Counted from the first letter of the stretch, positions 1-43,119 are shown. The stretch: DNA of 43,119 nucleotides from Actinomycetota bacterium (GCA_013821525.1 JACDGR010000001.1:1-43119), one strand, 5' to 3'. The notes: generated by a model from the sequence alone, not told the origin. Program-made: numbers and translations.

Positions 1-127
1 TTCCTCATGTCAGCGTCGCGTACTTGTAGGTGCCGTCCGGATAGCGCACGTAGAGGCGATGGTTCGTCAGGTCGACACCCGCGATCGTCGTCATGCCGAC
101 GGGGACTCCCGGCTCCTGCGTGCCGAT
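1..127. repeat. Terminal direct repeat, left copy (exact duplicate of 42993..43119)
   Basis: Bases 1..127 (ttcctcatgtcagcg...ctcctgcgtgccgat) recur base-for-base at 42993..43119. Read directly from the sequence. Confidence 0.97.
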
Positions 128-1303
128 GTCGGAGTCCGTGTACGCGCCGCTCGGCTTCGACGGGATCGGCTTGTACTGCGAGCGGATCGCGTAGTTGACG
201 GTGCCCGAGGACAGGTTCAGGATCGGCTTGATGTACGTCGGCGAGACGCTCGAGTAGCGGGGGTAGCTGATGAAGTCGAAGTTGTTGTTGAGGTTCGTGC
301 CGGTGAACTTCACCATGCCCGTTGCGAACGGGCGCGAGCCGGGTTGCGTGACCTCGATGCTGTCGAGCGTGACGTAGCGGTTGCCGTTACCGGAGAGCCC
401 GACGCCGTCGAAGTGGATCAGGCAGTCCGTCTCGGATGAGTTCTGGTTGTGCGTCCAGTTGCGGAGGTTGACGCTCTTGCACGCCTTGAACGTGAACATC
501 GAGAACGGCGTGCCCGCGTAGGCGGAGCCCTTCTGGTACGTCGAGAGGTCGAGATCCTGGAGGTAGACGCCGGTCACTCCCTCGAAGCGGAACCAATCGC
601 CGAGGGCGGTCTGGTTCTGGTCGGCCTTGCAGCCGAAGAAGTAGAGGTTCCCCATCGGCAACGCACCCGCCTGCCCGCTCGTCGCCCAGAACGCGCCATC
701 CTTGAAGCCCTCCCACGTGCAGTGGTAGAAGCGCAGGTCGTTCGTCGCGTCGGTGCTCGAGCCCATCGCCGGGAACGTCGCGCCGTCGGCGGACTGGACG
801 AGCATCGCGGGCTTGCTGATGTTCGAGCCGCCCGAGTTGTCCCAGCGACACTCTTCCCATGTCGAGTCCCAGACCTCGCACTGGATGTAGAGCGCGACGC
901 CACCCGCATTCGCGAACGTGACGTTCTCGAACTTCGCGGTGTGCACGTAGGCCATCTGCACCAGCGGCGACGTCCACGCCGCGTTATTGCCTTGGATCTG
1001 CATGTCGGACATCTGCGGTGACGCGATGTGCCCGCCGATGCCGCCCGGGCCGTTCACGCCACCGGCGGTACCGATCATGCTGAGCGCGGTGATGTCGGAC
1101 TGGCGAATCAGGATCGTCGTCTGCTTACCGGCACCCTGCAGCGTGACCTTCGACGGGATCTGGATCGTGCTCGTGACCAGGTACGTGCCGGTTGGGAGCA
1201 GCACGACGCCACCCGCGCCGCCGGTGTCGACGACGATCTTGTCGATCGCTGCCTGGATCGCGGTGCTCGTAAACGCGGTGACCGTCTCGACGCCGCCACT
1301 CAT
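5..1303 (-). CDS. Tailspike / polysaccharide depolymerase, right-handed beta-helix (pectate-lyase-3-like), paralog B
   Basis: 432-aa ORF. The N-terminus AIQAAIDKIVVDTGGAGGVVLLPTGTYLVTSTIQIPSKVTLQGAG is the typical entry motif of pectate-lyase-superfamily tailspikes, followed by Gly/Asn/Thr-rich beta-helix-like sequence. Paralogous to 1371..2639. The last 123 nt lie inside the terminal repeat. Confidence 0.8.
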   Translation of the reverse strand: MSGGVETVTAFTSTAIQAAIDKIVVDTGGAGGVVLLPTGTYLVTSTIQIPSKVTLQGAGKQTTILIRQSDITALSMIGTAGGVNGPGGIGGHIASPQMSDMQIQGNNAAWTSPLVQMAYVHTAKFENVTFANAGGVALYIQCEVWDSTWEECRWDNSGGSNISKPAMLVQSADGATFPAMGSSTDATNDLRFYHCTWEGFKDGAFWATSGQAGALPMGNLYFFGCKADQNQTALGDWFRFEGVTGVYLQDLDLSTYQKGSAYAGTPFSMFTFKACKSVNLRNWTHNQNSSETDCLIHFDGVGLSGNGNRYVTLDSIEVTQPGSRPFATGMVKFTGTNLNNNFDFISYPRYSSVSPTYIKPILNLSSGTVNYAIRSQYKPIPSKPSGAYTDSDIGTQEPGVPVGMTTIAGVDLTNHRLYVRYPDGTYKYATLT

Positions 1304-1370: not shown

Positions 1371-2639
1371 TCACGAGACGGTGACCGACTTCCACGTCGA
1401 ACCGACGCGGACCCAGATCTTCGACGCGGTCGTGTCGACGACGATCGCGCCCGACGCGACGCCCTCGGGGAAGTCCGCGTCGACCGGCGTGCCCGCCTTT
1501 ACCATCGTGCAGAGGCCACCCTCGAAGTGCGTGAACATCGGCTGGTTCGACCAGCTCTTCGCAACGCTGTCCTGGACGAGTATCTCCATGAAGTCGCCGA
1601 GCACGCCAAGGAACGGACTGCCGGTCACGAACGGATCGCAGGTACCGGAGACGGCGTTGATACGGAGCGTGTTGCGCCCCGCGGTGTTCAGCACGTTGAC
1701 GCCCGACCCGCCCGCCGTGAAGTTGTTCATGAAGACACCGTTGACGGTGGCGTACGTGCAGTGGTACGTGGCGTCGCCGATCTGGATGCCGCACTCGCCA
1801 CTCACGTTGTTGCCATAGATCGTGCCGCCCGACCAGGCGCTCCCCGAGGTCAGCAGCAGGTTCGCCCTGAACGCACCCTCAGCGACGCAGTTCGAGTAGA
1901 ACGTCTGGTTCGCTGCGAACGGGTAGAAGCCGTAATGGACGCGACCCCAGACGTGGACGTTCGTAAACAACTCGCCCGCCGCGCCACCACCGCCGAGGTT
2001 GGAGCCCTTGAGGTAGACGCCGTACGCGGTCGTTCCACCGGAGGTGATCAAGGAGTCGAGCGTCTGGACGACCCCGTTGACGAAGATCGAGTCGTGCGGG
2101 CCAGACCAGTAGAGGCCGCAGCCGGATCGGAACTCGCGGATCTTGAAGTTCGACCAGTACGCCTCCATGTCGTTCCCGCCGACGCCCCACTCCGACCACG
2201 CGCCACCCGACGCGCCGTTCACGAACTCGACGTTGTTGACGCGGTAGCAGTAGCCGTAGACGCGGAACGTCCAACCGCTCGTGTTGCCGGCCTTGTTGCC
2301 GTCGAGGGTCAGGTCGCAGATCGTGAAGTGGCTGATGCCGTTCGTCGTGATCGTGCCGGTCAGGTCGGCAAAACCGACACTGGTCAGCAGATCAGCGTTC
2401 GTGCCCGACTTCAACTTGATCGTCGTCGTCGCGACGCCCGAGCCGCAAAGCGTGACCTTCGACCCGATCACGAGCGTCGAACAGAGGTACGTACCGGGTG
2501 GCAGCAGCACGATCCCGCCACTGATGGCGGCAGCGTCGAGCGCGGCCTGGATCGCGGCCGTGTCGTCCGTCACGCCGTCGCCGGTGCCCGTGTACCGAGC
2601 GACACCAGCGAGCGACGCGACCTCGATCGCTCCCGCCAT
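1371..2639 (-). CDS. Tailspike / polysaccharide depolymerase, right-handed beta-helix (pectate-lyase-3-like), paralog A
   Basis: Track ORF 1371..3059 trimmed to the internal ATG at 2639 (MAGAIEVASLAGVARYTGTGDGVTDDTAAIQAALDAAAISGGIVLLPPGTYL...). That ATG overlaps the TAA of the upstream gene (TAATG), and the 140 residues upstream are Arg-rich and look off-frame. 422 aa. Confidence 0.8.
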   Translation of the reverse strand: MAGAIEVASLAGVARYTGTGDGVTDDTAAIQAALDAAAISGGIVLLPPGTYLCSTLVIGSKVTLCGSGVATTTIKLKSGTNADLLTSVGFADLTGTITTNGISHFTICDLTLDGNKAGNTSGWTFRVYGYCYRVNNVEFVNGASGGAWSEWGVGGNDMEAYWSNFKIREFRSGCGLYWSGPHDSIFVNGVVQTLDSLITSGGTTAYGVYLKGSNLGGGGAAGELFTNVHVWGRVHYGFYPFAANQTFYSNCVAEGAFRANLLLTSGSAWSGGTIYGNNVSGECGIQIGDATYHCTYATVNGVFMNNFTAGGSGVNVLNTAGRNTLRINAVSGTCDPFVTGSPFLGVLGDFMEILVQDSVAKSWSNQPMFTHFEGGLCTMVKAGTPVDADFPEGVASGAIVVDTTASKIWVRVGSTWKSVTVS

Positions 2640-4390
2640 TAGACGAACATTCCCGGGAGGCAGGCGGTCGCCATCCTGATGTGACCCGTGTAAGACGGGT
2701 GTAGGCCGTCGATCGTGTACGGGCCGATAGTGGTGTCGGCCTTCCAGAGGCCCGAGTCGCGACTCGTCTCTACGGCGTCCGCCGCCTCGATCACGAGGTC
2801 GCAGAGGCCGCTGGCACCCGCACGGATCCACGCGTTTGCGGCTTTCCGTACCAGCCCCGCTCCGGCCGCGAGCGTCTCCGTCTGGTTGGCGACGGTCGTC
2901 CAGCCGTCCGAACTCGTCGTGCGTGGCGTGATCGTCGACATCGCGACCTTCAAGCCTCTCTGCTTCGCCCATCCGCAGATCGTGGCTGTGTCGGCCTGCC
3001 ACTGTGCGAGCGTGCGACCACCGTAGATGTCGTTTGTGCCGTACGCGTAGAGCAGCCACTTTCCGATACCGAACAGGCCCCGGCGCTGAACACCGTTCGT
3101 GTTCGCGGCGAACTGCTGAGCCGACTCACCACTCTTCGACATCGGCAGCACCGGGTGCGTCGGCTCGAGCGCGATCGTCGCGTACGACTCGAGCGTCCGA
3201 AAGTAGTTCCCCGTGCCAGACAGGATCGAATCTCCGAGCATGACGATAGACGACGGAGCGTTTGACGTGTAGTCAGCAGTAACGGCGGTCGGCACGGGGA
3301 TCACGACGGAACCACCAGAGTTCGTGTTCGCAAACGCGACTCCGCTCGCGTGGGCAATCGTGAGTGGTGCGGTGAGGTAGACCGTGTAGGGATTCGCGAC
3401 GCCCACGATCGTGCGAGCCGTTACCGTTTCAACGTTTCCAGCGGTGTCCAGCGTGAACGTCTGACCACGTAGGGGAGTCGCCGCGTTGACGACCTGCAGC
3501 GTGGTGTCACCGATGTTGGTGGCGGCAGCGAGCGTCGTAGATCCCGATACGGCTGCAACTCCGAACGTACCCGAGTAGATATCGAACGTCGAGAGGTTCG
3601 ACGATGCGGTCGCACCCTGGTCGCTCGAGATCTCGCGATTCGTCCAAACGCCCTGACCGACAACACTGCCAGCAGCGGTGTGGTTCGCGACGAGTACGGC
3701 GCGCAGCGTCGCCGTGTACGGGCTCGACGCTGTCGTCATCCTGATGATCTCTACAACCTCTGTGCCGGAACCGCCGATGCGCATTCGCAGCGGCGAGGGA
3801 CGGTCGACGGGGAGATCGGTTAGCGTGATCGACGAAGCGCCGAGCGTGACGTCGGCTGCTAGCGTGGTGTACCCGCTCGTTGGCACGAGGTTCGTCGAGT
3901 TGTTCGGCGCGAGGATCCGCGTGCGCGCGTAGTACGTCGCGCCTGCTGGTACGTCGGCAGCCACCGGGTCGCTGGTCAGCAGACCGTACCGGTCGAGTCG
4001 CCCGAACCGGTTGCCGCCGAACGTGACGGGATAGATCGTGCCCGACGGGTACTCCAGTGCCGCCTCTATAAGGACTTCGTTGTCGGGGAGAATGTCGGTG
4101 TTCGCGCCCGCCCCGTAGATGAACCGGACGCCGCTCATCGAACCGTACGCCGTGAGCGGCATCCGCCCGGCAAGGATGTTGTTGGGTGTCGCGATTCCCA
4201 GGGCGGAGCGTGCTGGCGCGGCGACTACTAGACGACCCTCGGTGACTCCGAGATCGCTCAGTACGGCCTGGCCGTTGACGAGAAGCTGGCCGCTGGTCGA
4301 CTGGAGAACCGTCTGGTTCGGCGTGTTTCCTAGGAAGATCGGCCCGCCAACGCCGACAGATCCAGAGAACTGTTCGTCCGCTTGTGCCAT
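2639..4390 (-). CDS. Tail fibre protein with C-terminal SGNH/GDSL esterase domain
   Basis: Start at the internal ATG 4390 (MAQADEQFSG...), which forms a TAATG overlap with the upstream stop. 583 aa. The C-terminal part carries SGNH blocks in order: MLGDSILSG (block I Ser), YGTNDIYGG (block III), IDGLHPSYTGH (block V, D-x-x-H). Confidence 0.8.
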   Translation of the reverse strand: MAQADEQFSGSVGVGGPIFLGNTPNQTVLQSTSGQLLVNGQAVLSDLGVTEGRLVVAAPARSALGIATPNNILAGRMPLTAYGSMSGVRFIYGAGANTDILPDNEVLIEAALEYPSGTIYPVTFGGNRFGRLDRYGLLTSDPVAADVPAGATYYARTRILAPNNSTNLVPTSGYTTLAADVTLGASSITLTDLPVDRPSPLRMRIGGSGTEVVEIIRMTTASSPYTATLRAVLVANHTAAGSVVGQGVWTNREISSDQGATASSNLSTFDIYSGTFGVAAVSGSTTLAAATNIGDTTLQVVNAATPLRGQTFTLDTAGNVETVTARTIVGVANPYTVYLTAPLTIAHASGVAFANTNSGGSVVIPVPTAVTADYTSNAPSSIVMLGDSILSGTGNYFRTLESYATIALEPTHPVLPMSKSGESAQQFAANTNGVQRRGLFGIGKWLLYAYGTNDIYGGRTLAQWQADTATICGWAKQRGLKVAMSTITPRTTSSDGWTTVANQTETLAAGAGLVRKAANAWIRAGASGLCDLVIEAADAVETSRDSGLWKADTTIGPYTIDGLHPSYTGHIRMATACLPGMFV

Positions 4391-5082
4391 TACCAGTTCC
4401 ACCTGACGTCGGTCGAGTTGTCGTTCGGGATCCACACTCCACGGCCTCGACGTACACGCTTCACGCTCCCACCAGCCCGGTTCTGACGAGCCATCGCCGC
4501 CATCGACCGGGTCTGCGACTCGGCTGCGAGGCCACTCGCGAGCGGCGACTTCGACAGGAGCGCAGCGCGGTACGCCGCCTGGTAGACGACTGCGGCGTGA
4601 TCTTCGGGGCGCAGCAGGGCGGGCGTGTCCGAGTCTGTCGCCATCAGCGCGGGGCGGTACTCGTACGCGATCTGCAACGTGTCGCCCAGCATCGGCGCCG
4701 GGTAGAGCAGCAGCTGCGAGAGACCGTTGAACGCGTACGCCCGCACCACACCCGAGATCGAGTTGCGACGCAACCAGTAGATCTGCTGTGGCGAGACTTC
4801 CTCGAGTGGTGTCGTCTGGTTCGCCGTCGTGCCGCCCCACGCGTAGATCAGCATCTGCACGCGCACGAAGTCCGTGAGGGAGAACGGGGTGGCGGTCAGG
4901 TCGTAATCACCCTGGCCGTCGACGAGAGTCGTGACGGTGCTCGTCTTGATCGGCGTGCCGGTGCGCTGCACGAGCTCGATGTACGCCTCGTTCAGGAACC
5001 GCTTGACACGGCCACGCTCCTCGAGGCTCGACTGGTCGGCGAGGTCGAGCGCTTCGTCCTGCAGTTCGAGGAACGTCGTCAC
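4390..5082 (-). CDS. Adaptor-like virion protein, paralog 1 (next to the fibre genes)
   Basis: GTG at 5082 overlaps the TGA of the upstream gene (GTGA). The longest-ORF start is 5145. Motifs are collinear with 39198..39995: GRVK..N.A, DY.L then TDF, P.P.....I.Y.R, D.D.P. The function is inferred from the paralog that sits next to the nozzle-like gene. Confidence 0.55.
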   Translation of the reverse strand: MTTFLELQDEALDLADQSSLEERGRVKRFLNEAYIELVQRTGTPIKTSTVTTLVDGQGDYDLTATPFSLTDFVRVQMLIYAWGGTTANQTTPLEEVSPQQIYWLRRNSISGVVRAYAFNGLSQLLLYPAPMLGDTLQIAYEYRPALMATDSDTPALLRPEDHAAVVYQAAYRAALLSKSPLASGLAAESQTRSMAAMARQNRAGGSVKRVRRGRGVWIPNDNSTDVRWNW

Positions 5083-5426
5083 AGGCCCGACACCAGCAGG
5101 TTGAACGCGGGGGTGGAAACTTCGATCTGGCAGAACGGACAGCAACCCTGCGAGATCAGCCGGCGCGCACCGTCAGCGATCGGCGAGGAGAATAGGTTCG
5201 GGCATTCCGCTTCCCAGACTTTGAGGTTCGCGATCGAACACCACGACGGGAACGGCGTCGCGCACGACGGGCACGCGAGACCCGCAGCCATCCTGGATGC
5301 GTAGTCGTGCTGCTCGGTGACGGTGCCGCCGATGTAGACGCCGAGGTCGCGCGATTCGACGCGGCCACGCTGGTAGCCGTACATCTCCTCGTAACTCATC
5401 GGCGGGTGCTCGCGCCAGTCACTCAT
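5079..5426 (-). CDS. Small Cys-rich (zinc-ribbon-like) protein
   Basis: ATG at 5426 overlaps the upstream TGA (ATGA). 115 aa (MSDWREHPPMSYEEMYGYQRG...) with paired cysteines CPSC and CCPFC. The Arg-rich residues upstream in the track ORF were rejected. Confidence 0.6.
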   Translation of the reverse strand: MSDWREHPPMSYEEMYGYQRGRVESRDLGVYIGGTVTEQHDYASRMAAGLACPSCATPFPSWCSIANLKVWEAECPNLFSSPIADGARRLISQGCCPFCQIEVSTPAFNLLVSGL

Positions 5427-7192
5427 GCTGCCACCGCCTGACGCACCGGCAACGGCCGGATCGGGTACGGATCCACACCGCACGTCGCGAGGTACACATT
5501 CCGCATCCGCACCGCGAGCCGCTCCGTCAACACGTAGCGGCGCGCGTTCGCGATCATCTCGTGCGTCGCCTGCGGATCCGCCAAAGCGAACTGCAAGTGG
5601 TCGCGAAACTGGAGTTGCGTCTTCGCGAGCAAACCAGTGTCGCCGCTTCGGATCGTCGCGTACGCCGGCTGCGCAGAAGCAATCGTCAACGCTCCCCCCA
5701 TCGTGTAGTCCAGCCACTTCAAATCACTCTTGCCGTCATTCATCCTGGAGGCGTGCAGCGGCGCGAGACCAACGTCGAGAATCGAGACCAGATCCCGGTA
5801 GTGCTGCAGCGAACGCGTATACGGGAAGTGCCGGTACGCGAAGTCGAAACCGGGATCCATGCCGATGCAGCACACCATCACGCCGGGCTGCTCGGACGCC
5901 CAACGCAACGCGGGCTCCACCAGGTACACGTCCGGCGTGTGCTGCGCAGCAGCCGCCCACCCAACCCGGATGATCCCATCGTCGATCCGCAGCGGTGCTT
6001 CCCAATCGGCCGGGTCGACCATGTTCGGGATCACGACGACGTTCGGGTTCACCTTCGCGTACTGGTACGCGAGTGGCGGCGTCGCACAGATGATCGAGTC
6101 CGCGTCCCGCACGACGCGTCGGTGCGCCGGCTGGTTCTCCACCCACGAATCAGCGATCGCGTGCGCGCCACACTTCCGCAACCACCCAACGAGCGACGGC
6201 GACAGGTAGTCGTCGTCGACGTCCACGATCACCCGCTTTCCCTGGTCGCGCAGCAGCGGCACGAGCAACCTCTCGGCTTTCACGCCGGGGTGCAGCATGA
6301 TCGTCGCGGGCGTCTTGTCGACGTTCCGCGAATCCAACACGTTGTGATGCACGGCACCCGGCAGGTACCGCGCCGGCAGGATCCCGCGCAGGTACGCCTG
6401 TGCTTCCGATGCGCTGACCTGGAACGTCGCGGCGAGCGGCACACGCCCCGCCGGATCCGCCTCGGTGTCGTCGGCGAACAGTTCGCTGTACACGCTCTCG
6501 CGGATCGCCCAACGGATCGGCCCATAGTTCCCACCATCCGCCTCGACAGCCGCCTCGATGCGGTTCGACAACGAATCGTGCCGCGCCCGGTACAGGTACA
6601 CCGCGCTCTTGACGGGGACGTAACGTGCACCCATCGCGAGCGCCTTGAAGTGCCACGCCCAATCCTCCAACAGCAGATCGGGCTGCGGTACCGCGCGCAG
6701 CGTCGACGTCTTCGCGAGGAAACACCCCGGCAGATGGTTGATGTCCTGCAAGTTCCAGAACGCGGGTGGTTCCGCTTCGAGAACGATCTCGTTCGCGAGG
6801 TCGTCCCCCGGCGCAATCACCTGATCGTCGAGACCAGCCGCGTCGAGCGCCGCCTTCACGCGAGGCCACTCGTCCGACTGGCGAGCCTCGCGTAGCCGGT
6901 TCTGGCTGTAGATGTCGTAGTCCGCCAGCGTCGGGTACGCAACGTCTGCGGTACCGATCGCCTCCGCGAGGTGACGCAGGCACGTCGGGGTCAACGCGTC
7001 GTCGGCACCCATGATGAAGACGTACTCCGTCTCGATCGCCTCGAACGCGTCGTTCAACTGCTGCGTCATCTCGGCCTTCGAGTCGTTCGGGCAGATGACG
7101 TACGGGATGCCCTCAGGGAGACTCGCGAGGGCGATCTCGAGCCAGTTCGCGTTCCGCTTATCCCACGGGATCACGACGGTCAGGTTCTTCAC
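5423..7192 (-). CDS. Two-domain glycosyltransferase (N-terminal GT-A/GT2-like, C-terminal GT-B/GT4-like)
   Basis: 589 aa. The N-terminus LTVVIPWDKRN...YVFIMGADDAL has GT2 topology with a DxD-type acidic motif. The C-terminal half (VIVDVDDDYL...ADSIICATPPLA...VVVIPNMVD...IRVGWAAAAQH...GLAPLH...KSDLKWLDYTMGGALTIAS) looks like a GT-B retaining-type transferase. GTG start overlaps the upstream TGA (GTGA). Confidence 0.75.
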   Translation of the reverse strand: MKNLTVVIPWDKRNANWLEIALASLPEGIPYVICPNDSKAEMTQQLNDAFEAIETEYVFIMGADDALTPTCLRHLAEAIGTADVAYPTLADYDIYSQNRLREARQSDEWPRVKAALDAAGLDDQVIAPGDDLANEIVLEAEPPAFWNLQDINHLPGCFLAKTSTLRAVPQPDLLLEDWAWHFKALAMGARYVPVKSAVYLYRARHDSLSNRIEAAVEADGGNYGPIRWAIRESVYSELFADDTEADPAGRVPLAATFQVSASEAQAYLRGILPARYLPGAVHHNVLDSRNVDKTPATIMLHPGVKAERLLVPLLRDQGKRVIVDVDDDYLSPSLVGWLRKCGAHAIADSWVENQPAHRRVVRDADSIICATPPLAYQYAKVNPNVVVIPNMVDPADWEAPLRIDDGIIRVGWAAAAQHTPDVYLVEPALRWASEQPGVMVCCIGMDPGFDFAYRHFPYTRSLQHYRDLVSILDVGLAPLHASRMNDGKSDLKWLDYTMGGALTIASAQPAYATIRSGDTGLLAKTQLQFRDHLQFALADPQATHEMIANARRYVLTERLAVRMRNVYLATCGVDPYPIRPLPVRQAVAA

Positions 7193-7893
7193 AGGATGCG
7201 TTCCAGCCCAGCCTGGTCGACGTCCGCCTCGAGCTTCGCCTCAGCCAACTCGAGCAGCGCCTTCAACACACCCTCACGGTTCTTCGTCGCCGCCTCGTAC
7301 GCGTACACGCCGACCGCGTCGAGACCAAGATCGCGCACCATCGCGGGGATCTTCAGCGAAGCGCCCTGACCGATCTTGTCGTACGACGGCCACGGCGACG
7401 GCAGCGACTCCGCGACGACTTCCATGTACTCGAGGCCGTTCAGCCCGTTCGTGTCGAGCACACGCTCGGCATACGCGCGACTCTCGACGTCCGCGAGCCA
7501 CGCGAGTTCGAAGATACCGAAGTGCACCGTCGGGTCGTACGCCGACGTCATCCCGATCAGGTTCTGCGTGCCACCCGGCCCCGGCTGGAACATGCCCTGC
7601 GGCGTCATCGACGGGAGCGCGCCCATGATCGAGTGCGACTCGTGCTTCGCGTCGTTCGCACGCCACGCTGCCTGCGGGAAGAAATGCCGCGTCGCGACCG
7701 CCCGATCGTACTCTGGCGTGAGGCTGTGCTGCATCAAGTTCTTGAACTCGACGACGATCGCGGGAGCCGTCTCAACCTCGCGGCTATACCCGTCGTCGCC
7801 ACGCAGCAACTCGCGACGCGCGTTACGGACGTTGAAGACGAAGTGATCGCTCTTCGACACGTACCGCTTCGACTGATTCGGGTGGATACTCAT
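7189..7893 (-). CDS. Hypothetical protein of the head module (234 aa)
   Basis: Internal ATG at 7893 (MSIHPNQSKRYVSKSDHFVF...) preceded by GAGAGG. Lies between the major capsid gene and the glycosyltransferase and is coupled to the latter. No motif recognised. Confidence 0.6.
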   Translation of the reverse strand: MSIHPNQSKRYVSKSDHFVFNVRNARRELLRGDDGYSREVETAPAIVVEFKNLMQHSLTPEYDRAVATRHFFPQAAWRANDAKHESHSIMGALPSMTPQGMFQPGPGGTQNLIGMTSAYDPTVHFGIFELAWLADVESRAYAERVLDTNGLNGLEYMEVVAESLPSPWPSYDKIGQGASLKIPAMVRDLGLDAVGVYAYEAATKNREGVLKALLELAEAKLEADVDQAGLERIL

Positions 7894-7987
7894 ATGGGGT
7901 TTGGCCTCTCGATCGTTGGTGAGATGTGCCGAGCCGACGCGCCCCAGGGTTGGGGTAGAGGAGGGACGCGCCGGCCCAGGTGCGGGT

Positions 7988-9166
7988 CTAGCTGTACGCG
8001 GTGACGCCAAGCAGCAGCGCGTGGCGCTTCTCGTTGTCGAACTCGATGCAACCCTCGGTGAGGTACTCGTTCTTCTTCGAGTCCTCGTCGTTGCCCTGAC
8101 GGCCGGGCAGGTACCGCGTGTCGCGCAGCGGGCGCCACTTCACGGCGTCCGTGTCGATCAGGAACGCCATGCCAGCGGGGCTCGAGACGTTGTTGCCGGA
8201 CGCCGTCTGCGCGTCCATCCAGTCACGCTTGACCACGATGTCGACACGCCCAGCGACCGAACCGCTGATGTACGAGTTGACGTTCGTGCCCCAGCTGCGC
8301 TGCTTCTCGTTGTCCGCCGGCGCGAGCTTCGCGAGCGGGAAGCTCGACAGTGCCGACGCGATCAGCGGCGAGCAGAACAGCACCTTGTTCGTGCCGCCAT
8401 ACCGGAACGCGCTGCGAAGGAACGTCTCGAACGTCTTCTGGTCGAGCGTCGACACCGACGTCGTCTTGTTCGTCGCGATGTAATCGATCGCGCCACCGGC
8501 GTACGCGACGGGCTGCGTGCCGGACGAGTCGTACGCGCGCTGACCGAAGAACGCCGTGTTCTCGAGCTGGCGGCGATGCTCGATGAACTTCTCCGCCTTC
8601 TCGTTCGTGTCGAGGTTCCCGCCGTACATCTCCGACGCGAGTGCCGTCTCCGTGAAGCCGAACGGGTCACGCTGGATCTGGCAGTAGTTCGACTGTGCGA
8701 TCTTCTTCGTCTGGATCAGCGTGCCGAGCGTCGCACCTTCGAGTGCGGCGTTGCCGATCTTGATCACGTCCGAGCCGGCCGCTGCGGTCGTGCCCTGCAG
8801 CGACAGTGCCCGGTTCACACCAGCGCTCACGCCGGTGATGCCGGTCACGACGACGTTCTCACCCGACGTCGAGAACCGCAGGACGTCACGCACGCGGAAC
8901 GGGTTCGACGTGAACGTCAGCGTCGACGTGCCACCGGTCGCCACTGCGGCGCTGACGGCGAGCGTGTCGATGATCGGCACGAGGTCGTCCTCGAGCCACT
9001 GCACGATCTGCGAGTGCGCCGGGCGACTCTTGATCTTCTGCAGGTAGTTCGTGAACTGCGAGACGTCATCCTGGAGGTTCTGGATAACGGGGTTCATGTC
9101 GACGACGCGCTGCGCCTGGGCGATGGTCGCGTCGGAGACGACACCCGTGAGGGTGGGGTTTGCCAT
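7988..9166 (-). CDS. Major capsid protein (HK97-fold type)
   Basis: 392 aa directly after the scaffold gene, with AGGAA 5-6 nt before the ATG. The sequence (…FTETALASEMYGGNLDTNEKAEKFIEHRRQLENTAFFGQ…VLFCSPLIASALS…AGMAFLIDTDAVKWRPLR…) resembles the HK97-fold capsid family found in SU10-like and other podoviruses. Recognition by eye only. Confidence 0.8.
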   Translation of the reverse strand: MANPTLTGVVSDATIAQAQRVVDMNPVIQNLQDDVSQFTNYLQKIKSRPAHSQIVQWLEDDLVPIIDTLAVSAAVATGGTSTLTFTSNPFRVRDVLRFSTSGENVVVTGITGVSAGVNRALSLQGTTAAAGSDVIKIGNAALEGATLGTLIQTKKIAQSNYCQIQRDPFGFTETALASEMYGGNLDTNEKAEKFIEHRRQLENTAFFGQRAYDSSGTQPVAYAGGAIDYIATNKTTSVSTLDQKTFETFLRSAFRYGGTNKVLFCSPLIASALSSFPLAKLAPADNEKQRSWGTNVNSYISGSVAGRVDIVVKRDWMDAQTASGNNVSSPAGMAFLIDTDAVKWRPLRDTRYLPGRQGNDEDSKKNEYLTEGCIEFDNEKRHALLLGVTAYS

Positions 9167-9302
9167 GGTGTTCCTGCTCTCTAGAAGGTGTTGTTGTGGT
9201 GCTCTTGCCTCTAGTGAGCGGCCCGCCTGATGGCCTCAGACAATGCGGGTTATCGCTCGTGCACCCGCCGTGTGGCGGGGTCGTGCGAACGTGCGTTGGT
9301 GG

Positions 9303-10211
9303 TTAGCTCATTCCCGGCTGTCCGGCGAGAACCTCATCGAGGAACGCCTGATCCTGCGCGCTCACACCACTCGAACCCGACGCCGTCGACCGTGTCTGCG
9401 TACGAGCCTTCGCACCAGCCGCCGGCTTCGCGGGTGCCTGCCCCGCGAGTGTCGCCGACTCCTGCGCCTCAAACTCCTCGAGACGAGCACGCGCGTACAA
9501 CGTCTTCACGTAGTCCGTCATCGCCTCGGGAGTCGCGAGACGCGGATCCCGATCATCGACCGGCCCCTGCGTGGTGTAGAGCTCCGCGATACGCGGCTGG
9601 TACTTCGCGAACTCCGGCAACTTCGACGCCTCTTTGAACGCGTCGACCGCCGTCTTGTGGTTCGTCTCCGCCTGGCGCGACTGCTGCTCCTGCTCCCACT
9701 GCGAACGCAACTGCTCGACCTGCTCACGCTCCGCCGTGACCGCGAGCTTCGCAGCGTACGAGTGTGCGTCCATCGGAGCGAACGTCGACCACAACTGGTA
9801 GATCTCGTTCTTGAGGTTCGGGTTCCACTTCGCGATCTCGTCGCTCATCGCCCACTCGAGCGTCTCCTGCGGGTTCGTGTACGTCGAGTTCGCGATCTGC
9901 TGGCGATCCGAATCGTCATACCCGACAGCGAACGACGCGAGCGGATCGTACGGCTCGGGCTGCTCGGCCTCGGGTTCGGGCTGCTGCTGGTACTGCGCGA
10001 GTTGCTGGCGTGCCTGTGTGTGCTCACGCTCGAGCTCCAGGTACGCCTTGATCGCGTCGTCGGTCGTCTTGAACTTCCCAGCGATCAACTCCTGCGGCGC
10101 TTCCGTCCCGACCGCACCATCGTCCGCGCCAGTCTCCTCGACGTCGGGCTCGGGGTCGGGTGGGTTGATCGCGTCGTTGATCGCCGCTTCGGTCTCGTCC
10201 AGGCTACTCAT
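9303..10211 (-). CDS. Scaffolding protein
   Basis: 302 aa, strongly acidic and Gln/Glu-rich with helical repeats. Located between the portal block and the major capsid gene. Confidence 0.65.
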   Translation of the reverse strand: MSSLDETEAAINDAINPPDPEPDVEETGADDGAVGTEAPQELIAGKFKTTDDAIKAYLELEREHTQARQQLAQYQQQPEPEAEQPEPYDPLASFAVGYDDSDRQQIANSTYTNPQETLEWAMSDEIAKWNPNLKNEIYQLWSTFAPMDAHSYAAKLAVTAEREQVEQLRSQWEQEQQSRQAETNHKTAVDAFKEASKLPEFAKYQPRIAELYTTQGPVDDRDPRLATPEAMTDYVKTLYARARLEEFEAQESATLAGQAPAKPAAGAKARTQTRSTASGSSGVSAQDQAFLDEVLAGQPGMS

Positions 10212-10447
10212 CGGCCTCTCCTGTGTGTCGACGCGCCCCTGGCAGCCCTCAAGCCTCGCAACTCACCAGTCAGCGTGATGTACTCCTCGAACGTCCTACC
10301 AGGCTTCTCCAACCCGGACAGGACAGCCTCTACCCGCGCGTCGACCAGACTCGAGAGCGCCGTGTAATCGGCGTTCTTCGCGAGACGATCGTGCAGTGCA
10401 GCGATCTCGTCCTGCTGCACGTTCTGCGCGGGGGCGTCAATGTTCAA
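10208..10447 (-). CDS. Hypothetical small protein (79 aa)
   Basis: ORF-track entry. TTG start overlaps the upstream TGA (TTGA), and the stop overlaps the scaffold ATG (ATGA). Confidence 0.5.
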   Translation of the reverse strand: MNIDAPAQNVQQDEIAALHDRLAKNADYTALSSLVDARVEAVLSGLEKPGRTFEEYITLTGELRGLRAARGASTHRRGR

Positions 10448-10938
10448 CCGACGCCCTTGACCTTCGGGTTCTTCTTCACCGCAGCGGCGAGCTCCGCGAG
10501 ATCCCGCTCGAGCGTCCCGGTGCGTTCCGGCCCGTTGATGATCGTCACCGGGTGCGGCTCACCATCCGCCGTCGTGTACTGGTAGACGCGGAAGTCACCC
10601 TCCTGCTCGTCCTTCCGGACGTACATATCGCCAGCGTCATCCACGACGTACAGCAGGTCGTGGCTGGCGAGCGTCGACGTCGTGCCGTCACGCGCACCAC
10701 CACGAAACGCGACGAGCGCGCTCCCTTTGCCGAGCTTCGCGGGTGTCTCTTTGCGCTCCTCGTGGGTGTGCTTCGCCTCCGCGTTCTCCTTCGGCGACAG
10801 TTTCGCCGGCTGCTTCGGGTCGAGCGGAGTCTTGCGTCGCGGTGCCGCCGCACTCGTCGTCTTCGCCGGGTCTGTCGGGTGGTTCGGCGCCGTCGCGTTC
10901 GCCTGCGCTGCGACGGTGCCTTTCGTCGTCTCGGTCAT
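10444..10938 (-). CDS. Hypothetical protein (164 aa), Lys/Pro/Thr-rich N-terminus
   Basis: ORF-track entry, ATGA-coupled to the upstream gene. Globular-looking C-terminal half (LLYVVDDAGDMYVRKDEQEGDFRVYQYTTADG...). Confidence 0.6.
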   Translation of the reverse strand: MTETTKGTVAAQANATAPNHPTDPAKTTSAAAPRRKTPLDPKQPAKLSPKENAEAKHTHEERKETPAKLGKGSALVAFRGGARDGTTSTLASHDLLYVVDDAGDMYVRKDEQEGDFRVYQYTTADGEPHPVTIINGPERTGTLERDLAELAAAVKKNPKVKGVG

Positions 10939-11237
10939 GCGGGTTCTCCGATCAGGAAACGGGTCTTGGACGGGTGGGGACGCGCCTCAGCGTCGATACC
11001 GAGGGCGGCCAGTCGAGCGGTCTCGGCACGCATCTCGCGGATCGAATCGTCCATCTCGCGGTGCAGCATCTGCAGGTGCGCAACGAGGCGCCACATCACG
11101 TCGCTGCCACCCTCGACGTGCAGCGGGTGACCACCGATCGTGTCGAGGTTCGAGTCGGCACGACGAATCAACCCGCACGTCGGGCACGACTCGCCAAACG
11201 CGAACGCACTCGTATCGCTGGGCTGCTGGAACGTCAC
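10935..11237 (-). CDS. Hypothetical protein (100 aa) with a CPTC pair
   Basis: ORF-track entry. GTG start overlaps the portal TGA (GTGA). Confidence 0.55.
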   Translation of the reverse strand: MTFQQPSDTSAFAFGESCPTCGLIRRADSNLDTIGGHPLHVEGGSDVMWRLVAHLQMLHREMDDSIREMRAETARLAALGIDAEARPHPSKTRFLIGEPA

Positions 11238-13045
11238 GCTGCCGGCCTCCCGAACGGGATAGAACTCGGCGCGCCAGCCCCCGAAGGGGTTGTTGGCACT
11301 GCGCCGAGCGGGACACCCTGACCAGGCTGAGTCGAGGCCAGTCCACCGCCCAGACCAGGGACACCCATCGGAGCCGGAGGCGGCGGCTCAACCAGCATCG
11401 CCTCCGGGTCAACATCATACGACTCGAAAAAATCCTCGAGGATCGCTTTCGCGTTCACGATCATCCCGAACTGCGGCAACGCCATCAGCCCAGCGATCGT
11501 CTGCAACATCAGGGACGCCTCTTGCCGGCGCTCCTGCCGGTTCAGCGACTCGTCCGCATCCTCAACCTCGTACGTACACCCGATGATGTCCTGGATCTGC
11601 AACGGCATCGGCTCACCATTCGGGCCGTACCCAGGCACGACATCAGGCGCGAGCTGCTCGTTCAACAACAGCTGGTGCTTCCCGATCTGGCGTTCCTGGT
11701 TCGCGAACTTCTGCTTCTTCATCAGGATCCGGCGTTGCGCCATCGACTGGATCGCCTTCACCGCCGTCGCCGTCTTCTGATCGATCGTGCTCGTCTCCGA
11801 CCCGGAAACGAACGGGTTCACGCCCGAGATCGTCTCCATGTCGCCCTTCAACACCTGCTCCTCATCGAGCGACGGTTTGAAGATCGAGGTGTTCGGCGAC
11901 CACGGCATCACCGCATCCGCAGGGTTGCCGTTCGTCAAGTTGACCGCGCCTGGCGCCCACGTCCACGCATCGGTGTCCTGCTCCGAATCACGCGCGAAGA
12001 ACGGGTTGTTGTTCACGAGCTCGACCTGATCGAGGCGCGCATTCTTGTTCCGCCAGAGCGCGACCTGGATGTCCGCGATCAACTCTGGCTCAGACTTGCC
12101 GTCGATGCGGAACAAGCGTGGTGTCGGCGCGACGAACGAGAACGGGATCTCCTTCCCGTTCAGCACGTACGGCGACAGCTGGTCGCGCATCACGATGGTC
12201 CGCGACGCGACGACCGTCAACTGGATTCCATCCCGGCGGTGCTGCCACCGCTCCCACACCTCGACAAGATCCTTCCGGTCGATATACCCCGGACGATCCG
12301 TCGTGCCGTTCCCACCGACGACGACGTCGTCGACGTTCTCGTAGAGGCCATCCGCCTGCATCGCCTTAAGGCTGGCTTTCGTCTCGTACGTGCGGTAGAA
12401 CAACGTCGTGATCGTGTCCGGGCTCGTTGCCGCCGGATCCCACATCACGTCCTTCATGTCGCACACCGTGATCGTCGGCCGATCAAAAACCTTCACGTCC
12501 TGCGCCTCCACGCTGCGCGCCGGCGTCGCCTGGCCGTAAACCGGCGTCAGAATGTTCTGCCGCACCTTCGCGAACTCGTACGCCCACGACGTCTTCACGC
12601 ACGACACACCCCGCTGCAGGGCTTGCAGATAGTTGCCCGCGATCTTCTCGTCGTAGTTATCCTCGCGCCGATCCTCGTTCAACTTGTTCTCGTACGCCTG
12701 CGCCTTGTCCTTCAACTCGGGCTTCCCACGCGGCGGCTTCACGCTCGCGATCGGCTTGTCGTCGAGCAGCATCGCGAGTTCAGCTTGGATCTTCTCGAAC
12801 ACGTACGGCGGGTGCAGCGACGATCGCCACTCACCAGCCTCATCCTGGCTGTTCGCTGCGAGGTGCCACGGCTCGAGCTTCCCGTCGTAGATGCGGTCAC
12901 ACTGGTCGTACCGCTCGCACCGCTCCCGATGCTTCTGCTCGGCCTTCGCGAGGTCACGCAGGAACTGGGGGAGCGCGTCCTGCATCGTCGACTCGCGGGT
13001 CGTGCTGGTCTGGCCGTGACCCAAGTCAGCGGCAGTCGTGCTCAC
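11234..13045 (-). CDS. Portal protein
   Basis: 603 aa, located two small genes downstream of TerL. Size, position and general sequence character (…QALQRGVSCVKTSWAYE…, acidic helical C-terminus) fit a portal. GTG start overlaps the upstream TGA. Confidence 0.8.
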   Translation of the reverse strand: MSTTAADLGHGQTSTTRESTMQDALPQFLRDLAKAEQKHRERCERYDQCDRIYDGKLEPWHLAANSQDEAGEWRSSLHPPYVFEKIQAELAMLLDDKPIASVKPPRGKPELKDKAQAYENKLNEDRREDNYDEKIAGNYLQALQRGVSCVKTSWAYEFAKVRQNILTPVYGQATPARSVEAQDVKVFDRPTITVCDMKDVMWDPAATSPDTITTLFYRTYETKASLKAMQADGLYENVDDVVVGGNGTTDRPGYIDRKDLVEVWERWQHRRDGIQLTVVASRTIVMRDQLSPYVLNGKEIPFSFVAPTPRLFRIDGKSEPELIADIQVALWRNKNARLDQVELVNNNPFFARDSEQDTDAWTWAPGAVNLTNGNPADAVMPWSPNTSIFKPSLDEEQVLKGDMETISGVNPFVSGSETSTIDQKTATAVKAIQSMAQRRILMKKQKFANQERQIGKHQLLLNEQLAPDVVPGYGPNGEPMPLQIQDIIGCTYEVEDADESLNRQERRQEASLMLQTIAGLMALPQFGMIVNAKAILEDFFESYDVDPEAMLVEPPPPAPMGVPGLGGGLASTQPGQGVPLGAVPTTPSGAGAPSSIPFGRPAA

Positions 13046-13350: not shown

Positions 13351-13535
13351 CAGTAGCCGACGACGAGAGTCTGAACATCCTTGATGTACGTCAGCGCCCA
13401 GTTCGCAGCGGTGATCGCACCCTGCAACTGGTTCGACTTCGCCGCGTTCGACGAGTTCGTCGCCTGCGGAGTCAGGTCCGCAATCACGGTCGTGATCGCG
13501 GAAAGAGCCGTGTTCGTATCGCCAGCAGTCGTCAT
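13350..13535 (-). CDS. Hypothetical small protein (61 aa)
   Basis: ORF-track entry. ATGA overlap with the TerL stop. Confidence 0.55.
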   Translation of the reverse strand: MTTAGDTNTALSAITTVIADLTPQATNSSNAAKSNQLQGAITAANWALTYIKDVQTLVVGY

Positions 13536-15211
13536 CGCTCGTCACTCCTAGGTCGTGGTGCGCGCCGCGTGATCGGATTCACGCGAGCGTGCTTCTTCGC
13601 CGGCAACCCGGCAGGACGGATCGGCCTCGTAGCCCGCAAGTTCCGGACATGCTGCGTGATCGCCATCGCCATCACCCTGTCGTCGTGCGCGCCGGTATCA
13701 GCCTCCGGGCGACCACGATCGTTCCACACAAACGTCCGCATCTCCCTGACGAGATCAGCGTCCCTGAACGCCCCAGGACGATCCCTAAGCGCTTCGGAGA
13801 GCGTCGCGAGCACCGTAGGCCTCGTCGTGCTCGACATCGGGTAGCCAAACGCTCCCGTCTCATCCAGGCTCGACGTCGAATCCTCGTCGAGGTGCGTGTA
13901 CAGGTTCGGGTACGCGTAGCGTTGGCGCAGCAGGATGATCGTTGCCGTGCCATACCCACCGTTCTTCTCAACGGCGAGATGCGCATCGTTGTAGAGGCGT
14001 CCGACCTGCGCGAGTTTGAGGGCGTACTCGTCTTCCGTCCACCCGACGCCGTGCAGGCTCGCGACGGTAACGCCGGTGTCGGTGTCGACGACGTACGCGC
14101 AGTACGCATCCGCCTTCGAACCGACAGGGCGTGCGTCGTGTTCGGCGAGGATCGTGGAGCCGGCGACGTCCGCACCGATCACGTACCGCCGACCAGGCTG
14201 CTTCGACTTCCAGATCCGCAGCGGCCCGTACGGGTTCTCAACGAACCGCAGCACACCACCACCCTTCACCGGCGCGCCGATGATCTCACCACGAAGCTTC
14301 GGCGCTTCGACGATCACCTGGTCGAGACCATGGAAGTACGGACGCCCAGACGACAGGAACGCTTCCTCAGGCGTCGCGGGGTATTCCTGGTGGAACATGT
14401 CGAGCGACCCGCCACACTCGTTCGCGATCGTGTGCCGACGCCACGCAAGTTGCGCGTCGGTGACGCCGATGCGCTCGAGCGCGACCTCGTCATCGTCGAG
14501 CTCGCCAAGCAGCTGGTGGTCGGCGAGTTGGTAGTCCTCGAACTCGTACCACGCGAAGAACAACGGCGTGTACTCGCTGCGTCCGTCGACGGCGCGCTGC
14601 CACTCCTCGTGGAACGTATCGCCTACACCATGGGCGGTCGACTCCAGGATGACGAACGTGCCGGGTTCGTTCGGGACGATCTGCCGGAGCGCGAGCAGCG
14701 TGGAGCGGGCGTCGGGCCAGAACGCAACCTCAGATGCGTGGATGGCTCGCGTGCCAGTTCCGCGACCAACTCCGCTGCGACCACCAGCGGTGAACGTGCG
14801 GAGGCTCGAGCCCGACGTGAACGCGATTCGCTTGCCACGGAGCCCCGTCTTCTTCTGCAGTTTGAGCGCCGGCGGCAGGTTGTCGTACATCTGCTCCGTC
14901 ATCCCATGCAGATACTCGGATGATTCGTCGAGGTGCGCACCGGTGATCGCAGAGAACCGCCTGGTGGTGAACGCGAAGTGCGCGAACGACGCCTGGATCA
15001 CCGTCGACACACCCATCCGTCGCGACTTCAGGATGATGATACGAACCGGCTGCTGAGCCCGCAGGCTTGAGACGATCTCTGCGCGGATGCGACGCTGCAC
15101 GCTGTTCGGCTCGAACACCACCATCTTCCCTGAGCGCCGATCCTCGATGCGCAGGAAACGCCGGTAGTTCTCGAATCGCAGCTTCTCCTGGAGCTCAGCG
15201 ATGGTCGCCAC
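13532..15211 (-). CDS. terL: Terminase large subunit
   Basis: 559 aa. Walker A-like LKSRRMGVST, Walker B/coupling IHASEVAFW. C-terminal RNaseH-like nuclease acidic residues (VIGADVAGS..., AYVVDTD, GAHDDRVMAMA). Confidence 0.9.
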   Translation of the reverse strand: MATIAELQEKLRFENYRRFLRIEDRRSGKMVVFEPNSVQRRIRAEIVSSLRAQQPVRIIILKSRRMGVSTVIQASFAHFAFTTRRFSAITGAHLDESSEYLHGMTEQMYDNLPPALKLQKKTGLRGKRIAFTSGSSLRTFTAGGRSGVGRGTGTRAIHASEVAFWPDARSTLLALRQIVPNEPGTFVILESTAHGVGDTFHEEWQRAVDGRSEYTPLFFAWYEFEDYQLADHQLLGELDDDEVALERIGVTDAQLAWRRHTIANECGGSLDMFHQEYPATPEEAFLSSGRPYFHGLDQVIVEAPKLRGEIIGAPVKGGGVLRFVENPYGPLRIWKSKQPGRRYVIGADVAGSTILAEHDARPVGSKADAYCAYVVDTDTGVTVASLHGVGWTEDEYALKLAQVGRLYNDAHLAVEKNGGYGTATIILLRQRYAYPNLYTHLDEDSTSSLDETGAFGYPMSSTTRPTVLATLSEALRDRPGAFRDADLVREMRTFVWNDRGRPEADTGAHDDRVMAMAITQHVRNLRATRPIRPAGLPAKKHARVNPITRRAPRPRSDER

Positions 15212-15296
15212 TAGATCGAGCCCCCATACGCCACGCTAAGCGCCTGCGACGACTCGACGAGTCCCCTAGTACCTACGAGTTTGCAGGCATTTCGCA

Positions 15297-15647
15297 TCAC
15301 GCGGCCTCGTCCGGCTCGCCAAGCAACAGACTATCGATCGCGATCGAACCACCATGCTCGACCTCCTTCGACTCGCGAAACTGACCCGCCCTCGTGCGCT
15401 CCAGCAACCACGCACCAGCACGCCAATCGTTCATCGCCGCACCACGCACCACGTTCACCAGGGATTCGGTGGCGACGTCCCTTGCCCGCGCCACGTCTGC
15501 TGCAAACTGCGCGTCGGACTCGATCCAGTCGTAGAACATGCGTTCGCTGATTCCGGCTGCGGCAGCTGCGTGGTGGTTGTAGTTGCCAAGCTCGATCGAC
15601 TTGAGGATCGCCGCCTGCACGGTTGGGGTTCGTTTTGTCTGGGCCAT
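15297..15647 (-). CDS. terS: Terminase small subunit candidate (HTH protein)
   Basis: Immediately upstream of terL. HTH-like GNYNHHAAAAAGISERMFYDWI. ATG 15647 (MAQTKR...) was chosen because the longest-ORF GTG at 15671 lies inside the 15662..15689 hairpin. Confidence 0.6.
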   Translation of the reverse strand: MAQTKRTPTVQAAILKSIELGNYNHHAAAAAGISERMFYDWIESDAQFAADVARARDVATESLVNVVRGAAMNDWRAGAWLLERTRAGQFRESKEVEHGGSIAIDSLLLGEPDEAA

Positions 15648-16568: not shown

Positions 16569-16634
16569 TTTGAAAAGCTCTTTCGATCGGGGGTCCCGGC
16601 TGGGTGGTTTCCGGTTAGGGATGTTTTGGGGCTG

Positions 16635-16690
16635 TCGATCGATCGATTTTTTGATATTTGGGGGAAGAGCTCTTGCTCTTAAAGCTCTTA
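16635..16690. promoter_or_regulatory. Low-GC spacer with short palindromes and GCTCTT repeats
   Basis: TCGATCGATCGA palindrome (16635..16646), T-rich tract ttttttgatattt, AAGAGCTCTT palindrome (16665..16674), and three GCTCTT copies at 16669, 16675 and 16684. Confidence 0.5.
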
Positions 16691-16705
16691 CTGGGTCGGG
16701 GCGGT

Positions 16706-42992: not shown

Positions 42993-43119
42993 TTCCTCAT
43001 GTCAGCGTCGCGTACTTGTAGGTGCCGTCCGGATAGCGCACGTAGAGGCGATGGTTCGTCAGGTCGACACCCGCGATCGTCGTCATGCCGACGGGGACTC
43101 CCGGCTCCTGCGTGCCGAT
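42993..43119. repeat. Terminal direct repeat, right copy (exact duplicate of 1..127)
   Basis: Identical to bases 1..127. Confidence 0.97.

Follow-up and report, generated by a model that had tools for sequence, protein, structure and literature searches.

A glycosyltransferase fusion in a variable slot of the head module of an uncultured podovirus-like phage lineage

Why should a gene for a predicted glycosyltransferase lie among the head genes of a phage, and on what would its product act? The question is raised by a stretch of 43,119 nucleotides from an Actinomycetota bacterium assembly (GCA_013821525.1, JACDGR010000001.1:1-43119), which is referred to at its full length as the window. Between the gene of the major capsid protein and that of an SU10-type adaptor, the window encodes a protein with no assigned family (X), a two-domain protein with glycosyltransferase features (the transferase) and a small four-cysteine protein (ZN), read in this order (Table 1). 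The GTG start of the transferase overlaps the TGA stop of X as GTGA, the ATG of ZN overlaps the stop of the transferase as ATGA, and the start of the adaptor gene overlaps the stop of ZN as GTGA. The sizes and coordinates of these three open reading frames (ORFs) and their overlaps on the minus strand were reproduced exactly as given in a preliminary description of this DNA, and the placement between the major capsid gene and the adaptor and tail genes that it reported is borne out by the Pfam matches to SU10_MCP and SU10_adaptor. Three kinds of target exist for phage transferases, namely DNA, the host envelope and the virion. The comparisons presented here establish the junction between X and ZN as a stable slot, occupied by a sugar cassette that is dispensable and that diversifies. 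As to the target, the locus is best explained by a virion protein being glycosylated late, in the cytoplasm, a reading with an about even chance of being correct.

The slot between X and ZN

The relatives used in the comparisons amount to approximately 60 metagenomic phage loci overall. A sample of about 35 loci, drawn from NCBI, JGI assemblies and IMG/VR with a G+C content of 50-69%, was seeded with the transferase and is biased toward transferase carriers. All of these loci present the gene order portal, capsid, X, sugar enzymes where present, transferase, ZN and adaptor. Given this arrangement recurs in dozens of independent metagenomic contigs, it is not due to chance.

The content of the slot is what varies. 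The fusion stands alone in the window and in most IMG/VR contigs, is accompanied by a 66-residue ORF in L001, and has an NAD-dependent epimerase/dehydratase gene on its 5′ side in L005-L008, L064 and L067. An epimerase together with a hexapeptide-repeat transferase is found in L003. Stand-alone GT-B genes occupy the slot in L013 and in L014, the latter with a separate, unrelated GT-A further along, while in L090 genes for a methyltransferase and for a cytidylyltransferase-like protein, together with a 225-residue ORF, come after the GT-B. Since the stand-alone GT-A of L014 has no detectable relation to the GT-A domain of the window, the two acquisitions look independent at the sequence level. 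Two further loci carry approximately 1.5-3 kb of extra sequence 3′ of X (or of the GT-B gene), at 7134-9300 in L162, where it includes capsid-gene-like fragments, and at 8780-11850 in L128; these may be further variants of the cassette.

A second survey was seeded with the capsid protein and was blind to the transferase, its counts referring to X-bearing loci with enough downstream sequence. The fusion is present in about 21 of these loci, a GT-B alone in six, and no transferase at all in 17. In 15 of the transferase-less loci X is followed directly by ZN and the adaptor gene, and the remaining two (L136 and L145) have neither transferase nor ZN; more distant capsid relatives are without X altogether. 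These values disagree with the preliminary description, which took X and ZN for coupled partners of the transferase. Given transferase-less loci keep both X and ZN, the two are not dedicated transferase partners, and are rather head-module genes with transferase-independent roles of their own. The view of the transferase as the core gene, with X and ZN attached to it, had come from the biased sample and was abandoned when the capsid-seeded survey revealed a transferase-less clade.

In a rough neighbour-joining tree of the capsid protein, lacking support values, the genomes with a GT-B only are basal within the X-bearing clade, and the fusion marks one large subclade, to which the window belongs. 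Within that subclade, nine transferase-less genomes group together as one nested clade; a tenth (L134) falls outside it. The simplest history starts from a GT-B gene already located between X and ZN in the ancestor, to which a GT-A was fused once at a later point, with the transferase cleanly lost on at least one occasion. The GT-A/GT-B fusion is hence specific to a lineage, whose deeper relatives have a stand-alone GT-B. Compared between the window and either L001 or L010, the transferase, X and ZN have diverged to an extent within the range of the portal and adaptor proteins. Because this divergence follows the portal and adaptor, and because the GT-B is basal in the tree, inheritance was mostly vertical rather than by recent insertion.

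X belongs to a phage-specific family of 23 proteins, as obtained by profile search, in which PWPxYD and AYE are nearly invariant and MRFVSxS is conserved at the N-terminus; the conserved motif is kept in sequences of the 230-residue type, which is the type found in transferase-less loci. Its AlphaFold model, with a predicted local distance difference test (pLDDT) score of 77, presents an N-terminal beta-sheet and a helical C-terminal half with a long terminal helix. No match to X was found in Pfam, PHROG or NCBIfam, in the PDB by fold or by sequence, or among phage records in a protein search, and its sole match in the BFVD viral structure library is an uncharacterised phage protein. Both a decoration protein and an enzyme were considered for X, and neither was preferred over the other. 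Wherever the capsid is of the X-bearing type, with or without a transferase, X is the first gene 3′ of the capsid gene. X probably associates with the capsid or takes part in assembly, and it is among the candidates for the glycan acceptor.

For ZN, 16 representative relatives were found among 1.84 billion proteins, and a profile built without the L012 sequence recovered the protein in L012 with an E-value of 1.8e-4. Four cysteines are invariant (C52, C55, C96 and C99), and their CxxC...CPxC arrangement suggests ZN is a probable zinc ribbon, with zinc-finger matches in the PDB at chance level only. Another protein, P0042 (1478 residues), contains seven stretches that resemble residues 37-81 of ZN.

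Two glycosyltransferase domains in one protein

A large-database search retrieved 15 full-length or partial relatives of the transferase, with 35-80% identity. Considered alone, the window protein stays under the Pfam cut-offs for both of its domains, scoring 21.4 bits against 23.3 for Glycos_transf_2 (PF00535, residues 36-94) and 23.2 against 25 for Glyco_trans_1_2 (PF13524, residues 429-557). Considered as a family, 12 of the 13 aligned members match Glycos_transf_2 (best E 1e-7), 12 match Glyco_trans_1_2 (best E 3.7e-9), and eight match Glyco_transf_4 (PF13439), which describes the N-terminal half of GT-B enzymes.

When the profile of the N-terminal 245 residues was aligned against a GT2-domain profile with hhalign, the match reached a probability of 95%, with an E-value of 3.6e-8 over 186 columns. 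The motifs GADD (D64-D65) and EDW (E176-D177) do not vary among 13 sequences with identities as low as 38%, and both acidic pairs align onto the corresponding motifs of the GT2 profile. The AlphaFold model of the whole protein (pLDDT 83.8, predicted template modelling score 0.82) shows an alternating beta/alpha pattern in this half, and the assignment of the GT-A fold rests on the profiles together with this secondary-structure pattern.

The C-terminal half matches the PHROG 7162 glycosyltransferase family with an E-value of 1.5e-23, and is 32% identical to the stand-alone GT-B of L014 (E 1e-44). Its best Foldseek matches in the PDB, with E-values from 5e-10 to 1e-7, are PglA, TreT, BshA, HepE, GlgM, PimB' and TarM; for GT4-type GT-B enzymes the probability is 1.00 and the template modelling score to the target is 0.54-0.68. 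Searched as a full-length profile against PDB sequences, the transferase gave a marginal result only, PglA at E 0.008. The motifs DVDDDY (324-329) and KSDLKW (488-493) are invariant, and in the cleft region DVDDDY, R409, H418, K488 and D490 are kept in members at 35-80% identity. Although GT4-type enzymes such as PglA, BshA, PimB' and TreT have the two-Rossmann-domain fold in common with the phage GT-B, identity to them is 10-15%, and the best Pfam match of the phage domain is Glyco_trans_1_2 rather than Glycos_transf_1. In addition, the canonical EX7E motif of GT4 appears not to be kept: the positions of its glutamates are taken by the invariant K488 and the near-invariant Y496, according to a manual extension of the register, given the PglA alignment starts after the motif. 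Because of this apparent replacement, the C-terminal half is named GT-B with no assignment to family GT4.

The 589-residue protein is thus a fusion of a GT2-like GT-A domain and a GT-B domain, and probably works as a bifunctional glycosyltransferase, as predicted from its profiles and motifs. The preliminary description had proposed such a fusion, which the family-level Pfam matches, the hhalign alignment and the AlphaFold and Foldseek results sustain; it had also singled out GADDAL as a DxD-type motif, and the D64-D65 pair in it is indeed invariant across the family. In profile searches both halves match glycosyltransferase families, with the acidic motifs kept. The maximum hydropathy over 19 residues does not exceed 1.05 in X, the transferase or ZN, which indicates no membrane segment, and by this measure all three are soluble proteins. 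A further database protein, P0013 (479 residues), is 65% identical to 44% of the transferase, but the domains in its annotation are a thymidylate kinase and an NAD-dependent dehydrogenase, and the gene call may be chimeric.

Expression of the cassette and target of the transferase

The 106-nucleotide intergenic stretch between the capsid gene and X, which contains a stem-loop (Table 1), has a minimum free energy of -40.2 kcal/mol and a z-score of -2.72. Eleven relatives were checked at the equivalent position (L001, L005, L009, L010, L012, L013, L015, L064, L068, L079 and L090), and a hairpin of 10-17 bp is present in ten of them, with unrelated sequences; in L012 the stem is shorter, at 8 bp. 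The stem-loop of the window was not flagged by a scan for consensus terminators, terminator-like matches in 4000..10500 are at chance level only, and no sigma-70-like promoter was found in that same interval. The hairpin is probably a leaky terminator or an mRNA-stabilising element which governs how much of the downstream proteins is made relative to the capsid protein. Given it is conserved between the capsid gene and X, the products X, transferase and ZN are probably made at a lower level than the capsid protein. The cassette would be transcribed with the late genes, and a level lowered by the hairpin would suit enzymes and minor components; the hairpin also makes it slightly less likely that X is as abundant as the capsid protein.

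According to the preliminary description, the three proteins are made together with virion proteins rather than from a lysogenic-conversion locus. The overlapping genes and the absence of lysogeny genes among those found agree with this, yet the hairpin indicates that joint production probably takes place below the level of the capsid protein. Of the traits of lysogenic conversion, neither membrane components nor a lysogeny locus was found in the window: the products are soluble, the window ORFs that were scanned gave no integrase match, and the coupling is to late genes.

Late glycosylation of a virion protein in the cytoplasm is favoured because the enzyme is soluble, its timing would be late, it is encoded in the head module, sugar-nucleotide enzymes share its slot, and the cassette is dispensable. 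The transferase would be read from the late structural transcript, attenuated by the hairpin 3′ of the capsid gene, with its translation coupled through the overlapping stop and start codons. It would act in the cytoplasm during particle assembly, where, with nucleotide sugars as donors, each domain would contribute a sugar to a short glycan (of two sugars or more) on a virion protein, the obvious candidates for acceptor being the capsid protein and X. In relatives, the epimerase/dehydratase, hexapeptide transferase, methyltransferase or cytidylyltransferase of the slot may lead to different glycans, so that the module would be a glycosylation island that diversifies the particle surface. The gene structure, folds, motifs, synteny and gain and loss are the observations behind this account, from which we infer the expression timing, the catalytic activity and, above all, the acceptor. 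A wider claim, that an ancestral, mostly vertical and variable glycan-synthesis island exists in the whole podovirus-like family of approximately 40-kb genomes, across hosts of 50-69% G+C and hard-wired between two genes of the head, with the capsid surface glycosylated and X or the capsid protein as the acceptor, is put forward tentatively, as a possibility that falls short of an even chance.

A lead toward a protein acceptor is given by cellular relatives. The closest cellular relatives of the GT-B domain, in which KSDLKW and VDVDDDY are shared, are proteins of 1100-2300 residues with two GT-B domains and a GT2 domain. They differ from the phage protein in this size and architecture and in being 25-30% identical to it, their function is predicted, and the cellular loci that bear them have neither X nor ZN. 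The flanking sequence retrieved with the genes of these giant proteins holds one or two flagellin genes in 16 loci, from Chromobacterium, Aquitalea, Paludibacterium, Vogesella and a Burkholderiales genome (L024-L027, L029, L030, L032, L033, L035-L038, L044, L053, L056 and L058), in most of them directly 3′ of the transferase gene. In L035, the sole annotated locus, the giant transferase gene is directly upstream of those for flagellin and FliD, and genes for an epimerase and a B12/radical-SAM enzyme adjoin. Judging from their gene content, the Chromobacteriaceae/Burkholderiales loci look like an undescribed flagellin glycosylation island, and a literature search for flagellin glycosylation in Chromobacterium found nothing. 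Such a context is typical of flagellin O-glycosylation, where the substrate of a soluble enzyme is an abundant surface protein that assembles by itself, and these islands, like the phage slot, hold variable sets of sugar enzymes beside the gene for such a protein. By analogy, the flagellin link is a lead for protein glycosylation, not proof of it.

Several observations speak against a glycosylated virion protein. A C-terminal extension is absent from the capsid protein, given the SU10_MCP profile covers residues 18-389 of its 392. The cassette is dispensable, since a whole clade without the transferase keeps X and ZN, and hence the linkage to head genes could reflect a permissive insertion site rather than a function. 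The apparent loss of EX7E counts here as well, and the best 50 Foldseek rows for the whole model are all matches of the larger GT-B domain. The flagellin link is confined to one bacterial clade, whose relatives are only 25-30% identical. Finally, no homology to mycobacteriophage transferases was found, a tblastn search against 50,697 phage records having returned no mycobacteriophage match.

The transferase could instead modify a host envelope glycan or a lipid-linked precursor late in infection, its position in the head module being incidental. Its targets would be a cell-wall polysaccharide, a teichoic-acid-like polymer or a glycolipid, and the modification could mask receptors, to which progeny would otherwise be lost on debris, or exclude other phages. 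The best structural matches (PglA, PimB', BshA, TarM and GlgM) do act on lipid-linked or small-molecule acceptors, and the tail proteins of the phage, with a GDSL esterase and two pectate-lyase-like beta-helices, indicate host surface glycans matter to it. The cassette is also moron-like, in being dispensable and located at a gene junction, and the slot of one relative (L090) holds a cytidylyltransferase-like gene, from a family that includes the enzyme making CDP-glycerol for teichoic acid. However, enzymes of host-envelope conversion are typically membrane-associated and expressed from a prophage, whereas here there is no membrane segment, no flippase or polymerase gene, and no integrase or lysogeny module among the ORFs scanned. 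The cassette has no promoter or terminator of its own, and its coupling on both sides implies late expression, with little time for the export of a polymer. Furthermore, it was inherited with the head genes across a G+C range of 50-69%, while more frequent exchange would be expected of a host-specific envelope function. Modification of the envelope is thus considered unlikely.

That the phage glycosylates its own DNA against restriction, for instance on hydroxymethylated cytosine, as in T4 and in systems linked to 5-methylcytosine dioxygenases, we regard as highly improbable. Such glycosylation requires a hydroxymethylated base, and no TET/JBP-like dioxygenase or thymidylate-synthase-like hydroxymethylase was detected in the ORFs scanned (all but some small ones). 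The window does encode a C5-cytosine DNA methyltransferase (20376-21212, minus strand; Pfam DNA_methylase 2.5e-40) and an N6/N4 DNA methyltransferase (18897-20009, minus strand), but these are approximately 13 kb from the transferase, whereas genes for DNA hypermodification usually lie together. In about 50 loci the transferase goes with capsid genes and never with DNA-metabolism genes. Known DNA-modifying phage transferases span both the GT-A and the GT-B folds, the GT-A forms having DDD and EDY/F motifs (bioRxiv 10.1101/2023.12.21.572611); the T4 beta-glucosyltransferase, however, is not within the best 50 fold matches. The chance that one or both domains are catalytically dead, and that the protein has a structural or chaperone role in head assembly with X and ZN, is judged to be slight in the extreme. 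The scores of the window protein under both Pfam gathering thresholds, the seeming absence of EX7E and the tight coupling to structural genes would fit such a role, yet D64-D65, E176-D177 and many polar residues of the GT-B cleft are invariant at 35-80% identity, one clade assembles with no transferase, and sugar-nucleotide-modifying enzymes co-occur in the slot, which is sensible only with an active transferase.

Genome setting, known systems and significance

The two ends of the window (1-127 and 42993-43119) share approximately 125 nucleotides, at least 100 of them by exact match, and the last 25 nucleotides recur at about position 103. Given this shared sequence, the window is a circular assembly and a complete phage genome of approximately 43 kb, whose cut point falls within the tail-gene region. 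Every predicted gene is on the minus strand. The features of the head module and its surroundings are presented in Table 1.

Table 1. Location of the head-module cassette and neighbouring features in the window, and of the flagellin-linked genes in locus L035
Feature	Position	Strand	Evidence
Major capsid protein, 392 residues; upstream module boundary	7988..9166	-	Pfam SU10_MCP 1e-42; PHROG 1328 major head protein 3.5e-32
Stem-loop, GC-rich, 15-bp stem, no U-tract, just 3′ of the capsid stop	7931..7977	-	Folding, relatives
X, 234 residues, ATG start	7189..7893	-	ORF
Transferase, 589 residues, GTG start; stop codon 5423-5425	5423..7192	-	ORF
GT-A (GT2-like) domain, approximately residues 1-245 of the transferase	6458..7192	-	Pfam, hhalign, motifs
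GT-B domain, approximately residues 246-589 of the transferase; conserved cassette core	5426..6457	-	PHROG, Pfam, Foldseek
ZN, 115 residues, four cysteines, ATG start	5079..5426	-	ORF, relatives
SU10-type adaptor (head-tail), 230 residues; downstream module boundary	4390..5082	-	Pfam SU10_adaptor 2.6e-20
ORF with GDSL esterase domain	2639..4840 (true start probably near 4390)	-	Domain match
Two ORFs with pectate-lyase-like beta-helices	1371..3059 and 5..1303	-	Domain matches
SU10-type portal	11234..13045	-	
Large terminase	13532..15211	-	
L035: giant transferase with flagellin-region neighbours	7560-11459; 11606-12484; 14093-15454		

Downstream of the adaptor gene, the PHROG matches of the GDSL and beta-helix ORFs are tail-spike and tail-fibre families. 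The starts listed for these three ORFs overlap neighbouring ORFs, and the true starts are further downstream. A GDSL esterase together with two pectate-lyase-like beta-helices suggests host surface polysaccharide is deacylated and cleaved by the phage. The adaptor has a paralogue, with a second SU10-adaptor-like gene at 39198-39995 on the minus strand (Pfam 1.5e-8), and the same duplication is present in L001 and L003.

Elsewhere in the window, a PD-(D/E)XK nuclease (23061-23864) and a RecT-like annealing protein (23861-25225) are encoded on the minus strand, and no DNA polymerase was detected among the ORFs scanned. An ORF of 1218 residues (31147-34803, minus strand) has no Pfam or PHROG match and may encode an internal or ejection protein; it adjoins a peptidoglycan hydrolase gene with SLT and NlpC/P60 domains (29895-30986). 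Positions 16001-17000, between the terminase genes and the early region, have a G+C content of 0.595 against approximately 0.65, with a positive GC skew and a strongly negative AT skew, possibly marking an origin or a regulatory region. A search of the window for host markers, such as a WhiB-like gene, found none. A DNA search of positions 5000-9200 against the 50,697 phage records returned no match, and the nearest matches of the capsid protein among phage records, which are Roseobacter phage CRP-810, Caulobacter phage Kuura and EBPR podovirus 3, are only 26% identical and have uninformative annotations.

Glycosylated phage particles have precedents. In 2023, Freeman et al. reportedly described virion glycosylation in Che8 and other cluster F1 mycobacteriophages (as related in PMC11256854, PMC12619734 and PMC13313380). 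Capsid and tail-tube subunits of mycobacteriophages bear glycans made by phage transferases, and this glycosylation is accessory and non-essential (PMC11256854, PMC12619734). The Che8-type systems resemble the present one in having phage-encoded transferases, sometimes with a methyltransferase, which are thought or shown to decorate the capsid in the cytoplasm and to yield a glycan coat. They differ in that their genes are located toward the right end of the genome in siphoviruses (PMC11256854), whereas those of the window are in the head module, and in that their glycans are on the C-termini of capsid and tail-tube subunits, where the capsid protein of the window has no such extension. The window also differs from the mycobacteriophages in having a transferase with no sequence homology to theirs, a single GT-A/GT-B fusion, a podovirus-like genome and a fixed two-gene slot.

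In the tblastn search mentioned above, the transferase obtained weak C-terminal matches only, to the Streptomyces phages Zuko and KimJongPhill and the Arthrobacter phage Atuin. Zuko and KimJongPhill have a GT-B domain of PHROG 7162, as does the window, and in Zuko its gene adjoins that of a UDP-glucose dehydrogenase, just upstream of the terminase and head genes. In contrast with the window, these are siphovirus genomes of 82 kb with no GT-A, X or ZN; the match covers approximately 25-27% of the query at 30% identity, and the transferase function is predicted. Another parallel is chlorovirus PBCV-1, in which soluble multidomain transferases (A064R and A111/114R) build the capsid glycan in the cytoplasm, independently of the host machinery. 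PBCV-1 is, however, a giant virus of eukaryotes with other domain families, whose genes are scattered rather than adjacent to the capsid gene, and homology is not expected.

A literature search found no paper that describes this head-module layout of transferase genes. Virion glycosylation as such is known, and the finding is not surprising in principle; what it defines is a fixed sugar slot in the head module of an uncultured lineage, and this slot is recognisable, widespread and naturally variable. To our knowledge, glycans on phage particles have been shown experimentally only for a few actinobacteriophages, where they alter antibody recognition. If the particles of the present lineage are glycosylated, virion glycosylation would extend to another morphotype and to a broad, environmentally common lineage, and the succession of capsid gene, hairpin, X, variable sugar enzymes, zinc-ribbon gene and adaptor would be a genomic signature with which to find more cases. 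The natural variants, with a GT-B only, the fusion, extra sugar enzymes or a clean loss, make up a comparative series on the benefit of a glycan coat. The flagellin-adjacent giant transferases, in turn, point to an unstudied family of probable bacterial protein glycosyltransferases. Should the wider, more tentative claim of an ancestral island hold, virion glycosylation would be an old and widespread phage trait with a dedicated slot rather than a peculiarity of mycobacteriophages, and the slot would be the counterpart of the flagellin islands.

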